This document shows, piece by piece, positions 13,301 to 39,684 of a stretch of DNA of 64,000 nt; within the stretch, counting starts at the first letter, position 1, and each line of letters begins with the position of its first letter. The notes beneath the pieces are model-generated. The model was not told where the DNA came from, made no database searches, and saw only the letters and a list, made by a program, of their open reading frames with translations. Where the stretch lies: the UHGV virus genome UHGV-1366990. One strand, 5' to 3'. The DNA is from a virus. Position numbers and translations under genes: made by a program.

Positions 13301-13807
13301 TTATTTGTCAGGGTTCACTAAAACAGGGGTGGATACCAGTTCGCCGTTCTTCACAGAATGCTGGACTACAACAATCTGATCGACCATGCGATACACTTCA
13401 ATCCCAGCAGCCAGCATTTCAATAATGCCGTCTATGATACGATATGGTCGATCATAGAACACTTTAGCGATCTTGCCACTGTCGATAATACGACGGGTGC
13501 ACTCTGGGCATGGACTATGAGTGACAAACATCACCAGACCACAACAGTCTTCGGTGTGCTGGGGGAGTTTGCTCAGAGCATTCTCCTCGGCGTGGATAAC
13601 ACCCACCGATACCAGTTGACCGTCTACTTCCTTCTCACAGACATTAGGAGCGCCAGGAGCAGTCCCGTTCCAACCGATAGACAGGGGCTGGTCAACACGC
13701 GGGTCAACGATAACACAGCCGACCTTCAGGCGCTGGGCATAGCTGGACAGAGCGTATGCATGAGCCGAGCGCATATGCGCAAACAACATACGGGGTTTGA
13801 TAGCCAT
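13301..13807 (-). CDS. cd: dCMP deaminase (deoxycytidylate deaminase)
   Basis: Zinc-binding deaminase motifs HAEENAL and PCPECTRRI; ORF-track start at 13810 is GTG, the in-frame ATG is at 13807. Confidence 0.85.
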   Translation of the reverse strand: MAIKPRMLFAHMRSAHAYALSSYAQRLKVGCVIVDPRVDQPLSIGWNGTAPGAPNVCEKEVDGQLVSVGVIHAEENALSKLPQHTEDCCGLVMFVTHSPCPECTRRIIDSGKIAKVFYDRPYRIIDGIIEMLAAGIEVYRMVDQIVVVQHSVKNGELVSTPVLVNPDK

Positions 13808-14121
13808 CACATCACCAGTTTCTTTTCAAGGAGGAAGATCATGTCGTCTTGGTCTGCACGACCAAAGATCTGACCCATGGCGACCATCTGGTGGACTTCC
13901 CTGACAATGATTTCTTTGCCAGGAGTAACTTCATCCAGGTCCATGATAGTGCTGACGCGGTCTACCATGCGCGGCGGGTGATTAATGTAGCGCTGCAGGT
14001 ACTTCTCGCGAGTGGCGATCAGGTTGTTCAGCTCGGACAGCTCTGTCTCTTCTTCTGAGAAGCGCTTTTCCTTCGCCTGCAGTTCAGCCAGGCGCTCATA
14101 CATTTCTTTTAATGGGGTCAT
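13807..14121 (-). CDS. hypothetical protein
   Basis: 104 aa, SD AAGAGGAA; stop overlaps the dCMP deaminase start. Confidence 0.6.
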   Translation of the reverse strand: MTPLKEMYERLAELQAKEKRFSEEETELSELNNLIATREKYLQRYINHPPRMVDRVSTIMDLDEVTPGKEIIVREVHQMVAMGQIFGRADQDDMIFLLEKKLVM

Positions 14122-14191
14122 TTCCGGTTCCTCTTAATAAACTAAGGGGAAGTATATACTCCCCCTTCTTCAATAACCGCTGAATCTTTAT

Positions 14192-14521
14192 TCAGAGATA
14201 AGATTTACCGAGTTCGGTCAGGCGATAGAACGTCACCTCAGTGTTCGGCCAGTTCACGTAAGAACCGTCATGAACCATTGAACCAGCTGGCTCAATCAAC
14301 CCTTTGGACAACAGGGAAGCCCCAGTGCGGGGGTTGCCTTTGACGGAGGTGAAACCACCAGCGTTCGGGCATACCCGGAACGTCCAGACGGTGTTGCCCT
14401 TGTCATTGGTCCAGGATTTGGGATGAAAGTACCATTCACCATAACGGCAATGACCTTTCTCAAAGTTCAACATTCCTAAAAGGACGCAGAGTTGATGTCC
14501 TGTGATGCGTGGCTTTTTCAT
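14192..14521 (-). CDS. hypothetical protein
   Basis: The ATG at 14521 follows AAGGAG and forms an ATGA overlap with the upstream gene; the longer ORF-track start at 14572 lacks an RBS. Confidence 0.6.
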   Translation of the reverse strand: MKKPRITGHQLCVLLGMLNFEKGHCRYGEWYFHPKSWTNDKGNTVWTFRVCPNAGGFTSVKGNPRTGASLLSKGLIEPAGSMVHDGSYVNWPNTEVTFYRLTELGKSYL

Positions 14522-36998: not shown

Positions 36999-38593
36999 CC
37001 CTTCTTCATCAGGTCAAGGAGAGAGCGCGACGCTGCCTTCGTTGCTTCTGGCTGGGCGCTCGCCTTGGTTTTAGTTTTGGATGCCTTCTGCGGCTTCTCA
37101 GGCACTCTGTGCGCCAAAGGGTTGCTACCCTTAATCTTGCGCAACATTGGTGTGGTGTCGCAATATTTTTGAAACTCTTCTTTGGACAACCCTCTCAATC
37201 CAACAAAATCTATAATAAAACTACCAATAAAGTGGAGAGGGGCATCGAAGAATTTCAGTATATTCCAACCAACTGCCTTTACACCATTTTCATTCGCTGC
37301 CTTTGCAATGAACAACTCATTCTGAGAGTCTGGTTCAAGTTCGTATCCGATGGAAGCGTACTCACCCATGATCTTGACGTGATCCTTGGTGTATTGTTCA
37401 TTTCTTCCCCAGCCAGTGTCCTTCGCCGCCTTACCAGAACGACCGATGATACGTTTGTCGTAATCTTCCCGCGCTTGGTAAATAAAGGAGATGAATGCCA
37501 TGTTGTTGAACCCCAAGTCCTGGTGTACGAACTCGGGACGCCATCGATGACTCTGCATCATAGGTTCCCCCTCCAAGATGATAGTTGCATCTTTGAACTT
37601 TATTTTGAGATACTTCAACAACGAATTGGCCATCTCAGAAGACTTGAGAGTGGAGTGTATGAAATCCATGGAAGTCCATGATGCTAGACCTGATTTGTTG
37701 GACACTGTATACTTGCCGATGAACACCAGATTGATTTCCTTGAACCAAAACCCAACCTGGATCATCTTCTTGTCGAATTCGTATTCTATGAGTTCTGGCT
37801 CATATTTGGTTCTCAACCACTCAAGGAATTGAACGACACGAGTCCCCTTTCCCGTTCCACTTGTCCCGCGAATAACGACAATACCCGGCGTCACGCTAGA
37901 ATTTATCATAGTCATAAAACGTTTGTCCTCTTTGGGAATCCAACCATCTTTAAACATGGCGATCATATTACGAAAGACGCTCTCATCGCCCTTTAGATTA
38001 CGATACTCTGTGTCCAGTAGTTTAGAATACCACAATCCGATAGATTTGTAACCACATCCTCGTTTTGGCATACTGGTAGGATTCACAGTACCGCCGTTGT
38101 TCACCCATCTATCATAGATCCTACGGGCGTCCTTCCAAACCCACCAATAACCATTTGAAACCATGAATGGGTAGGGAGAATTACCCCTGTTCTCCTTTAT
38201 TGATTTTATTACACGTTCCCGGTATTCTGGATCATCCCAAGGATTTATACCAGATTTGTATTTCTTGCCAGTCCTAGCCAACGCCGCCTTAAATTGGTTT
38301 GGTATGATAGAATTGTCTCCTCCCAATTTCAGGTTCAGACATAACGGGTCCGACAGCAACTCATCCGTAACAATAATAGACTCCAGGTCGGATGCTTCCA
38401 ACCTGGTTTCAAACTTTTCTATTATCGTCTTTGAAAATTCAGAAGCGGGATGGGATTCCAACAACCTTTTGATGATCACACCAGAACCCATATAGGGGTC
38501 TTGTTCAGGAGCACATGAACAAGACCGAATCCCGACGTAGAATCTACCTGTGGGAACATGAGTTATCCTATAGGTGTAATGGTAACGAATCAC
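36995..38593 (-). CDS. GIY-YIG nuclease-like N-terminal domain fused to a P-loop (Walker A) kinase-like domain
   Basis: Residues 1-90: YTYRITHVPTGRFYVGIRS, ESIIVTDELL, LNLKLGG (GIY-YIG-like). Residues about 115-135: NUMOD-like PEYRERVIKSIKE. Residues 243-251: Walker A GTSGTGKGT, then ILEGEP. One uninterrupted ORF. Confidence 0.55.
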   Translation of the reverse strand: MIRYHYTYRITHVPTGRFYVGIRSCSCAPEQDPYMGSGVIIKRLLESHPASEFSKTIIEKFETRLEASDLESIIVTDELLSDPLCLNLKLGGDNSIIPNQFKAALARTGKKYKSGINPWDDPEYRERVIKSIKENRGNSPYPFMVSNGYWWVWKDARRIYDRWVNNGGTVNPTSMPKRGCGYKSIGLWYSKLLDTEYRNLKGDESVFRNMIAMFKDGWIPKEDKRFMTMINSSVTPGIVVIRGTSGTGKGTRVVQFLEWLRTKYEPELIEYEFDKKMIQVGFWFKEINLVFIGKYTVSNKSGLASWTSMDFIHSTLKSSEMANSLLKYLKIKFKDATIILEGEPMMQSHRWRPEFVHQDLGFNNMAFISFIYQAREDYDKRIIGRSGKAAKDTGWGRNEQYTKDHVKIMGEYASIGYELEPDSQNELFIAKAANENGVKAVGWNILKFFDAPLHFIGSFIIDFVGLRGLSKEEFQKYCDTTPMLRKIKGSNPLAHRVPEKPQKASKTKTKASAQPEATKAASRSLLDLMKKG

Positions 38594-38895
38594 ACAGCAT
38601 CCTCAATACGCCAGCTCACGCCGCCCAGCCAAGGTGCCCAGAACACAGCAACCTGTGGGCGGCCATTCTCTTCAAACTTAACTTTATACTGGTCGTCGAA
38701 GTTATAGAAGATTTCATCTGCTTCAGAGCGCTGGCCGATCTTCACCAGTACATCATGAAGAGCCTTGGCTGCACCGATAGGAGTTGGAGTCTCCTGCTGA
38801 CGAATGAAGTTGTTCACATAGATAATCACACCATCCATGTCGCTATCACCGGAATGCTTGTCTGGGGTTTCCCCAAACTTGGATTGTTCTTGCAC
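38590..38895 (-). CDS. hypothetical protein (GTG start)
   Basis: GTG at 38895 preceded by a strong SD AGGAGGA 5 nt upstream; 101 aa. Confidence 0.5.
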   Translation of the reverse strand: MQEQSKFGETPDKHSGDSDMDGVIIYVNNFIRQQETPTPIGAAKALHDVLVKIGQRSEADEIFYNFDDQYKVKFEENGRPQVAVFWAPWLGGVSWRIEDAV

Positions 38896-38904
38896 GATGT
38901 CCTC

Positions 38905-39684
38905 CTATCGGACGTATTGATAATGACTAATCAGGCGGTTAACCACTTCAACAATATTGTGGTTCAGGAAGTCGAAGTGATTCTGGCCTTCTACTGGTTT
39001 AATATAAAGCATGTCTTCCGAATTCGAAAGATCCAGTTTTTCATAATTGCCCTGAGGAACAAAGATGACAAAGATGTTGTTCAGGCCGCACGGCTCGACA
39101 TACTTCGGATTGTCATCAATCAGGACATCGCCAGCCAGCAGATGCTTTTCGTCGGTGCTGACAAACCCGTTGAAGATACCAGGGAACTTATCATAGACAA
39201 ACTGACGCTTGCTGCGCTCGTGTTCCGGCTCGCACTTCGACACCGCGATGAATTCAACATTGTCGAAATCTTCAAGCAAGATATCCTTCAGATTTACCAG
39301 GAACTCGTAAGCGCCGGGGAGCGGGTTCATCTTGGCGTACAAGTCAGGGCGACGCCACCAGTCCATAGGATCGTTACCGCTTGGCACACGTTGTTTGTGC
39401 ATCCCCAATTGGACTTCATGGTATAGCCACGCCGGATGCGCACGTTCACGCATCAGAATAGCCAGGTCGCCAGCATGGGACATATAACACTCTTTAGTGA
39501 TCGGCTGGAACTGGTATGACTTATGTTCCCCCGTAGCGATAGCAGCGGCGGCGATGTTCTCTTCGTTAAACCACTGCACCCAAGGGGAGAGGCTGTCGAC
39601 CAACGTCAGGTCAACATCCACGAGGACGCGATACAGGCCACCGACCTTTGATTTCATATCATAGATACAAACCAGGTTGTTCAT
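38905..39684 (-). CDS. HAD-family phosphatase, 5'(3')-deoxyribonucleotidase-like
   Basis: HAD motif I VLVDVDLTLVD (DxDxT) and C-terminal AGDVLIDDNP, as in NT5C-type deoxyribonucleotidases; SD GAGGAAG. Confidence 0.55.
   Translation of the reverse strand: MNNLVCIYDMKSKVGGLYRVLVDVDLTLVDSLSPWVQWFNEENIAAAAIATGEHKSYQFQPITKECYMSHAGDLAILMRERAHPAWLYHEVQLGMHKQRVPSGNDPMDWWRRPDLYAKMNPLPGAYEFLVNLKDILLEDFDNVEFIAVSKCEPEHERSKRQFVYDKFPGIFNGFVSTDEKHLLAGDVLIDDNPKYVEPCGLNNIFVIFVPQGNYEKLDLSNSEDMLYIKPVEGQNHFDFLNHNIVEVVNRLISHYQYVR

Follow-up and report, generated by a model that had tools for sequence, protein, structure and literature searches.

Thymidine Modification in Related Phages

In phages ViI, M6, SP10 and PhiW-14, the DNA made initially has 5-hydroxymethyl-2′-deoxyuridine (5-hmdU) in place of all its thymidine (PMC8989533). 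In ViI and CBA120, the hypermodified nucleoside 5-(2-aminoethoxy)methyl-2′-deoxyuridine (5-NeOmdU) then replaces about 40% of thymidine (PMC5889632; PMC11721090), and in a Taipeivirus it replaces about 16% (bioRxiv 10.64898/2026.05.19.726188). Here, we explored this issue in a stretch of 64,000 nucleotides from the virus genome UHGV-1366990 (the window), which comes from a phage of the same family as ViI and CBA120. A preliminary description had read four genes on its minus strand, for a dCMP deaminase (13301-13807), a metallophosphoesterase (14832-15392), a MazG-like NTP pyrophosphatase (22220-22801) and an NT5C-like deoxyribonucleotidase (38905-39684), as a set of nucleotide-pool editing enzymes consistent with non-canonical DNA. 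We examined protein family and fold, catalytic motifs, gene neighbourhood and phyletic distribution, and from these we infer all substrate specificities as well as the modification of this phage’s DNA.

Starting from 5-hmdU DNA, 5-NeOmdU has been reconstituted in lysates by ViI gp243, gp247, gp226, gp67 and gp160, and the purified gp243, gp247 and gp226 were a 5-hmdU DNA kinase, a serine:DNA transferase and a pyridoxal phosphate (PLP)-dependent decarboxylase, respectively (PMC5889632; PMC8989533). No 3H-thymidine enters the DNA of phage CBA120, and the ‘thymidylate synthase’ of this phage groups with dUMP hydroxymethylases (PMC3184105). The pool-editing enzymes in the published scheme are a phage dTTPase, a dTMP phosphatase (dTMPase) and a dCMP deaminase, all taken from work on the Bacillus hydroxymethyluracil (hmU) phages (PMC8989533). 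In those phages (SPO1, SP8, SP5C and phi-e) the logic is the same: dUMP is fed in, 5-hmdUMP is made, and dTMP and dTTP are destroyed. Their pool enzymes were defined biochemically in infected cells, and no gene assignments for them were found in the literature searched. The Ackermannviridae differ from the Bacillus phages in that 5-hmdU is modified further after replication and thymidine remains in the mature DNA. For PhiW-14, dTTP is absent from infected cells (PMC5977210), and the genome paper counts a dTTPase among the genes expected and names no candidate.

Both the 5-hmdU-derived thymidine of the Ackermannviridae and their need for pool-editing enzymes are thus already known from the literature. 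The preliminary description had argued that a nucleotidase and a pyrophosphatase together exclude the canonical nucleotide, and this logic agrees with the published scheme (PMC8989533). The remaining novelty is which genes remove dTMP and dTTP behind the 3H-thymidine exclusion of CBA120, and the NT5C-like protein is a well-supported candidate. Modified Ackermannviridae DNA resists many restriction enzymes in vitro, which is relevant to phage therapy and to host defence.

Hypermodification Genes and the Proposed Pathway

We compared positions 13301-33000 of the window with phage sequences by megablast, and 287 phage records were matched. The top relatives were the Escherichia phages LHE287 (96.8% identity), AV101 (95.6%) and ZQ1 (94.9%), followed by the Agtrevirus phages P46FS4, MK-13 and SKML-39 at about 90%. 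AV101 and P46FS4 both belong to the subfamily Aglimvirinae of the Ackermannviridae, and the genus given for P46FS4 is Agtrevirus. Because of these relatives and their classification, the window is part of an Agtrevirus (Ackermannviridae, ViI-like) genome. The four open reading frames (ORFs) were found on the minus strand at the coordinates given above, and their lengths equal those of annotated coding sequences (CDSs) of AV101. GenBank records of relatives use the same names for three of the four genes, and several records label the fourth, the NT5C-like protein, ‘5′(3′)-deoxyribonucleotidase’.

The features of the window that are diagnostic of modified DNA are a kinase and a transferase, not the four flagged genes. 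The kinase gene (36995-38593, minus strand; phrog_15209, phrog_314) encodes a 5-hmdU DNA kinase of the HMUD2 (ViI gp243) type, with a match to PF18747 of 519 bits over amino acids 236-531. The gene at 35202-36437 (minus strand) encodes an amino acid:DNA transferase of the aGPT-Pplase2/ADDT (ViI gp247) type, matching PF18724 at 203 bits. A third gene (45249-46442, minus strand) encodes a candidate PLP-dependent enzyme, possibly a decarboxylase of the ViI gp226 type; its match to Pfam PALP is weak (31.4 bits, below the cut-off of 35). At the level of Pfam families, the kinase, the transferase and the PLP candidate would thus correspond to ViI gp243, gp247 and gp226. The window also holds a T4-like DNA polymerase and the dCMP deaminase as counterparts of the ViI/CBA120 pathway (PMC5889632; PMC8989533; PMC3184105), and the thymidylate synthase (TS) homologue, deoxynucleoside monophosphate (dNMP) kinase and dUTPase of that pathway are carried by its relatives.

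We consider it fairly probable that this Agtrevirus phage makes hypermodified thymidine derived from 5-hmdU (5-NeOmdU in the studied relatives) and edits its pyrimidine pool. In ViI, CBA120 and the Taipeivirus, the modified nucleoside has been shown in virion DNA (PMC5889632; bioRxiv 10.64898/2026.05.19.726188). Before replication, the dCMP deaminase (13301-13807) would make dUMP, the TS homologue just outside the window would convert dUMP into 5-hmdUMP, and the dNMP kinase, likewise outside the window, would phosphorylate the product. The NT5C-like phosphatase (38905-39684) most likely dephosphorylates dTMP and so would remove the canonical competitor. Hydrolysis of dTTP or dTDP and of dUTP may fall to one or both of two all-alpha pyrophosphatases, namely the dUTPase_2 protein encoded outside the window and possibly the 22220-22801 protein. 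After replication, the HMUD2 kinase, the ADDT transferase and the candidate PLP enzyme (45249-46442) would turn part of the 5-hmdU into the hypermodified base.

The kinase of the window differs from the ViI/CBA120 type in that the allele is fused to a homing endonuclease. Its ORF is 532 amino acids long, and a Seg-like homing endonuclease, judged by eye to be of the GIY-YIG class, is fused in frame at the N-terminus; a possible internal start (MTMINSS) lies just ahead of the P-loop. A segment of 1.47 kb (37121-38588) showed no blastn similarity to AV101 or P46FS4, and its flanks are 92-97% identical to them. The allele is about 50% identical to that of AV101, 100% identical to that of ZQ1 and 95% identical to those of Dickeya phages. 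This cassette looks like a homing-endonuclease-driven allele replacement of a DNA-modification gene.

The preliminary description had noted no thymidylate synthase in the window and had suggested that one might lie outside. We searched the window by tblastn with the TS homologue, dNMP kinase, dUTPase_2, HMUD1 kinase and aGPT-Pplase1 of P46FS4 and found nothing better than E 0.2. The close relatives bear out the second point as well. Position 1 of the window corresponds to position 99145 of P46FS4, and the block 4.6-5.6 kb upstream of that point encodes an HMUD1 kinase (PF18748, 357 bits), a TS homologue (PF00303, 59 bits), a P-loop protein, a dUTPase_2 (PF08761, 31.7 bits) and an ACT-like protein, followed by UvsX. 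The P-loop protein has a weak Pfam match of its own and occupies the position of the dNMP kinase, as which it is annotated in Vibrio phage K388. AV101 has the same arrangement. Moreover, HMdU synthase is encoded by all the Agtrevirus genomes in the comparison of Sørensen et al. (PMC10791037).

The kinases of these loci often carry other names in the databases. The HMUD1 kinase of P46FS4 (piece L003, 42846-43508) is mislabelled ‘terminase small subunit’, and the same label was found on the K388 gene directly upstream of thymidylate synthase (L006, 14826-15485) and on PhiW-14 gene 37 (L007, 31347-32132), a published 5-hmdU DNA kinase. HMUD2 kinases are annotated as ‘guanylate kinase’. These labels look like recurrent misannotations.

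The NT5C-Like Phosphatase

The NT5C-like protein (38905-39684) is the best-supported member of the flagged set. Pfam NT5C (PF06941) matched it with 35.8 bits (cut-off 24.8) in an alignment restricted to amino acids 109-198 and profile positions 56-142 of 180, and NCBIfam returned nothing for this protein. The four motifs of the haloacid dehalogenase (HAD) superfamily (DxDxT, S/T, K and DD) were found in alignment A1, in which D22, D24, T26, K158, D189 and D190 are invariant across 23 homologues and position 148 of motif II is S or T in all but the two most distant. We then compared the structure model (predicted local distance difference test score, pLDDT, 88.6) with the PDB by Foldseek. Fifteen of the 16 best matches were 5′(3′)-deoxyribonucleotidases or deoxyribonucleotidase-like proteins, with target-normalised TM-scores of up to 0.76, and the other one, at rank 9 (3u13), was a designed esterase. 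Pfam, motifs and predicted fold therefore confirm the family that had been assigned to this gene.

The best structural matches were the human deoxyribonucleotidases mdN (mitochondrial) and cdN (cytosolic) and the Staphylococcus epidermidis protein 3bwv. They have the DxDxT, S/T, K and DD motifs in common with the window protein, together with residues at the positions of mdN W96 and F102; however, identity is 16-19%, and the query-normalised TM-score is about 0.5 owing to added elements. The HMMER alignment to the human mitochondrial enzyme places an invariant W and an invariant Y opposite W96 and F102, two residues that we take to line the nucleoside pocket of mdN.

Gene neighbourhood and phyletic distribution tie this protein to the hypermodification genes. 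The NT5C-like gene block lies directly downstream of the gene for a family-B (T4 gp43-like) DNA polymerase (40085-43084, minus strand; an ORF of 999 amino acids whose counterpart CDS in AV101 and P46FS4 is DNA polymerase). In Vibrio phage K388, in which the protein is 34-39% identical, the gene order is DNA polymerase, NT5C-like protein, HNH endonuclease, HMUD2 kinase and ADDT; about 5 kb beyond ADDT come the HMUD1 kinase, TS, dNMP kinase and dUTPase_2, so that the whole set falls within about 14 kb. Our tblastn searches found the NT5C-like protein in 357 records and the HMUD2 kinase in 351, and the counts per host genus nearly match. The family profile also has a clear homologue in PhiW-14, gp18 (106 bits).

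Two other suppositions about the family were rejected. PhiW-14 gp35, which lies between polymerase and kinase, is not the NT5C counterpart, as the homologue is gp18, elsewhere in that genome. Nor is the family exclusive to hmdU phages, since family-level relatives are also found in Campylobacter phages and in rV5-like phages, the latter with no known thymidine modification.

A precedent comes from phage PBS1, which has dU-DNA and whose dTMP phosphatase (Dtm) was shown in 2025 to be a PF06941 enzyme (PMC12697855). Like the window protein, Dtm is a phage enzyme with a HAD fold, and it clears away dT nucleotides to let a substitute for thymidine into the DNA. The two systems differ in that PBS1 makes dU-DNA and the family of the window phage makes hmdU-derived DNA, and the window protein is longer than Dtm, with an enlarged cap and a C-terminal helix. 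Bacillus phages were absent from the commonest host genera and from the sampled matches of a tblastn search with the NT5C-like protein (E ≤ 1e-3), so the two proteins are at most distantly related. Because of the synteny, the phyletic profile and the PBS1 precedent, it is plausible that the NT5C-like protein is a dTMP phosphatase. Such an enzyme would also account for the failure of exogenous 3H-thymidine to reach the DNA of CBA120.

The conserved position beside the 5-hmdU DNA kinase and the polymerase might also suggest that the phosphatase acts on DNA, stripping the phosphate added by the 5-hmdU DNA kinases from 5-hmdU and so setting the fraction or the positions that become hypermodified. 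HAD phosphatases that act on DNA exist, for example the phosphatase domain of T4 polynucleotide kinase. The window protein has 259 amino acids, compared with about 180-200 for a standard NT5C protein, with a larger cap and a C-terminal extension, and the modification is only partial (PMC5889632). However, the best structural and sequence matches are mononucleotidases, the residues at the aromatic positions of the mdN pocket are conserved, and the homologues of the Vibrio phage and PhiW-14 have the ordinary NT5C length of 201-210 amino acids. Furthermore, the in vitro reconstitution of 5-NeOmdU required no phosphatase (PMC8989533). We regard action on DNA as extremely improbable. It is likewise highly improbable that the phosphatase, opposing two DNA kinases, decides which thymidine positions are hypermodified; if true, a phosphatase at the DNA level would bear on the unexplained pattern of 16-40% thymidine hypermodification. 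In a less radical form, which keeps to dTMP as the substrate of the NT5C-like protein, this protein and the dimeric-dUTPase-like (MazG-like) protein could be the dTMPase and dTTPase of hmU-type phages.

The dCMP Deaminase

The protein encoded at 13301-13807 belongs by family and motifs to the dCMP deaminases of the T4 Cd type, as had been proposed. It matched PF00383 (dCMP_cyt_deam_1) with 59.1 bits (gathering cut-off 25) and phrog_174 ‘dCMP deaminase’ with 183 bits. The closest solved structure is 4p9c (E 1e-25), deposited as a deoxycytidylate deaminase and presumably the enzyme of cyanophage S-TIM5. The zinc and catalytic motifs HAE (as HAEENA) and PCxxC (as PCPECT) align with that structure, and the counterparts in relatives are annotated as dCMP deaminase or ‘Cd allosteric enzyme’. 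In the standard role of such enzymes, the deaminase likely supplies dUMP to the dUMP hydroxymethylase. A dCMP deaminase alone is not diagnostic of thymidine modification, because T4, which modifies cytosine, also encodes one.

The Metallophosphoesterase

The gene at 14832-15392 encodes a small but real metallophosphoesterase, to judge from its sequence, of a subfamily that Pfam does not capture. It matched phrog_547 ‘phosphoesterase’ with 151 bits, and the metal-binding motifs GDxH, GD, GNHD, H and HxH are invariant in alignment A3 of 13 homologues (D10, H12, D53, N98, H99, H134, H147 and H149). Pfam, including Metallophos PF00149 and PF12850, gave no match even at E ≤ 10; NCBIfam gave matches related to PdeM and SbcD that were far below threshold, and sequence and profile searches of the PDB gave a weak match to 1xm7 (E 0.03).

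Its identity as described thus holds, but its place in a set of enzymes for modified DNA is unlikely. We found 695 matching records, most of which (about 500 records) are below 60% identity, and the rows sampled from the latter came mainly from T5-like phages, as well as from jumbo phages and small (Vibrio) phages. Dickeya was not among the ten commonest organism names of the metallophosphoesterase matches. We take T5-like phages to have canonical DNA. Because its homologues abound in them, the metallophosphoesterase is probably outside the nucleotide-pool system.

The protein is 95-96% identical to those of Kuttervirus-type phages such as PhaxI, whereas the NT5C-like protein and its counterpart in these phages share about 82% identity. 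The difference points to a recent exchange or to unusually strong constraint.

The MazG-Like Protein and the Case for Pool Editing

The protein encoded at 22220-22801 is an all-alpha member of the NTP pyrophosphatase superfamily and a candidate pyrophosphatase of the dTTP/dUTP type. It matched phrog_1247 ‘MazG-like pyrophosphatase’ with 124 bits. The acidic metal-binding motif ExxE...ExxD is invariant in 24 homologues (E31, E32, E35, E52 and D55). In fold it is nearest to dimeric dUTPases and then to MazG, and its nearest structural neighbours include phage dimeric dUTPases titled for a signalling role (5myd). It differs from the dimeric dUTPases and T4 gp56 (PF08761) and from MazG/HisE in failing all their Pfam models: Pfam, with PF03819 (MazG) and PF08761 included, gave no match even at E ≤ 10. 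NCBIfam gave nothing, and searches of the PDB by sequence and profile were uninformative (MazZ 7ody, E 0.1-0.25). The name ‘MazG-like’ therefore stands at the level of the all-alpha superfamily, but the architecture is nearer to that of a dimeric dUTPase. The family is small, with 32 representatives matched in a set of 1.84 billion proteins, and its range is limited to the enteric Ackermannviridae; its remote relatives are small proteins with sub-threshold matches to MazG or PRA-PH. A comparison by hhalign with two other NTP-pyrophosphatase-like proteins of P46FS4 showed no similarity.

Several observations weigh against pool editing by the flagged enzymes as an aid to thymidine replacement. 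For the MazG-like protein, hhalign showed no similarity of the family to the dUTPase_2 paralogue of P46FS4, and identity falls to about 50% within the enteric Ackermannviridae, which indicates fast divergence. Its profile found no homologue in the K388 locus or in the first 150 kb of PhiW-14, both of which share the modification genes with the Ackermannviridae. The gene itself adjoins topoisomerase genes, away from the modification genes. For the NT5C-like protein, relatives of the PhiW-14 homologue occur in rV5-like phages (for example OR062943.1, 26178-26684) and Campylobacter phages, often adjoining a dNMP kinase. In rV5-like phages, for which no thymidine modification is known, this neighbourhood points to possible editing of the nucleotide pool, and NT5C-like nucleotidases can serve other purposes such as nucleotide scavenging. 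Moreover, the hydroxymethylase gene lies outside the window, the partial modification of the Ackermannviridae (16-40%) means that thymidine is not fully excluded from mature DNA, and our literature search on this family found no gene assignment for the dTMPase or the dTTPase.

The exclusion of dT nucleotides could instead rest on the dUTPase_2 (T4 gp56-like) protein encoded beside the TS homologue outside the window, and the MazG-like protein would then have a different role, possibly in counter-defence or regulation, like the signalling dimeric dUTPases of staphylococcal phages. The PF08761 protein, a clearer candidate for a dUTPase/dTTPase than the MazG-like protein, directly follows the TS homologue and dNMP kinase in P46FS4, AV101 and K388, and in the proposal of Kutter et al. 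the dUTPase also serves as a dTTPase (PMC3184105). The fast evolution and narrow distribution of the MazG-like protein, and the signalling titles among its structural neighbours, also fit this explanation. However, the strict conservation of the acidic metal-binding residues argues for a catalytic hydrolase over a purely regulatory protein. A division of labour is also possible, although it is speculation that the two all-alpha pyrophosphatases share out dUTP and dTTP between them. We consider it quite unlikely that dUTPase_2 is responsible for the exclusion and the MazG-like protein serves another role.

The observations above could also be taken to mean that the four genes belong to the general accessory repertoire of large lytic phages and form no dTTP-exclusion set. 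The deaminase would then supply pyrimidines, the nucleotidase would recycle or export host dNMPs, the MazG-like protein would be a house-cleaning enzyme or an alarmone hydrolase, and the phosphoesterase would act on proteins or on nucleic-acid ends. The Dmp enzyme of T5 recycles or exports host-derived dNMPs in this way. The wide spread of phosphoesterase homologues in other phages, the dNMP kinase neighbours of the NT5C-like relatives in rV5-like phages, and the lack of co-occurrence of the MazG-like protein with modification genes beyond the enteric Ackermannviridae all agree with this explanation, as does the spread of the four genes across 26 kb amid topoisomerase, rII and structural genes. 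However, the Ackermannviridae make hmdU-derived DNA and exclude exogenous thymidine (PMC5889632; PMC3184105), and thus they must have enzymes for the removal of dT nucleotides. The position of the NT5C-like gene beside the polymerase and the 5-hmdU kinase is kept down to about 35% sequence identity, and the dTMP phosphatase proven for PBS1 is a PF06941 enzyme (PMC12697855). A purely generic role of the four genes is unlikely in our view.

Taken as a claim about the whole set, the reading of the four genes as evidence for non-canonical DNA was partly right. A modified pyrimidine is well in keeping with the genome, the deaminase is a reasonable member and the nucleotidase a plausible one, but membership is unproven for the MazG-like protein and unlikely for the phosphoesterase.

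P46FS4 encodes a third ‘MazG-like pyrophosphatase’ outside the region of the window, a protein of 289 amino acids without a Pfam match. Its gene lies directly upstream of one matching PF18723 (‘5-hmdU DNA kinase, helical domain’), which we take to be the aGPT-Pplase1 (ViI gp160-type) gene; the pair is at 39924-42083 of piece L002. In PhiW-14, a MazG-like gene likewise adjoins an M6 ORF049-like gene. Given this pairing, it may be the protein encoded beside PF18723 that matters more to the modification pathway as an NTP pyrophosphatase.

Other Features of the Window

A cluster of three tRNA genes (Ser-GCT, Asn-GTT and Met-CAT) lies at 47538-48472 on the minus strand. The gene at 16979-17596 (minus strand) encodes a Tk.4 homologue, which matched phrog_335 ‘phosphatase’ with 207 bits. 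A weak NCBIfam match of 28.7 bits, far under the cut-off, links it to DarG, an antitoxin with DNA ADP-ribosyl glycohydrolase function, and it may serve as counter-defence against ADP-ribosylation of DNA of the DarT type. Just downstream of the modification gene block, a gene at 33296-34411 (minus strand) encodes a conserved protein of 371 amino acids that matched phrog_2087 with 542 bits and no Pfam family. Judged by eye, this protein has hydrophobic segments at its N- and C-termini and a cysteine-rich stretch.

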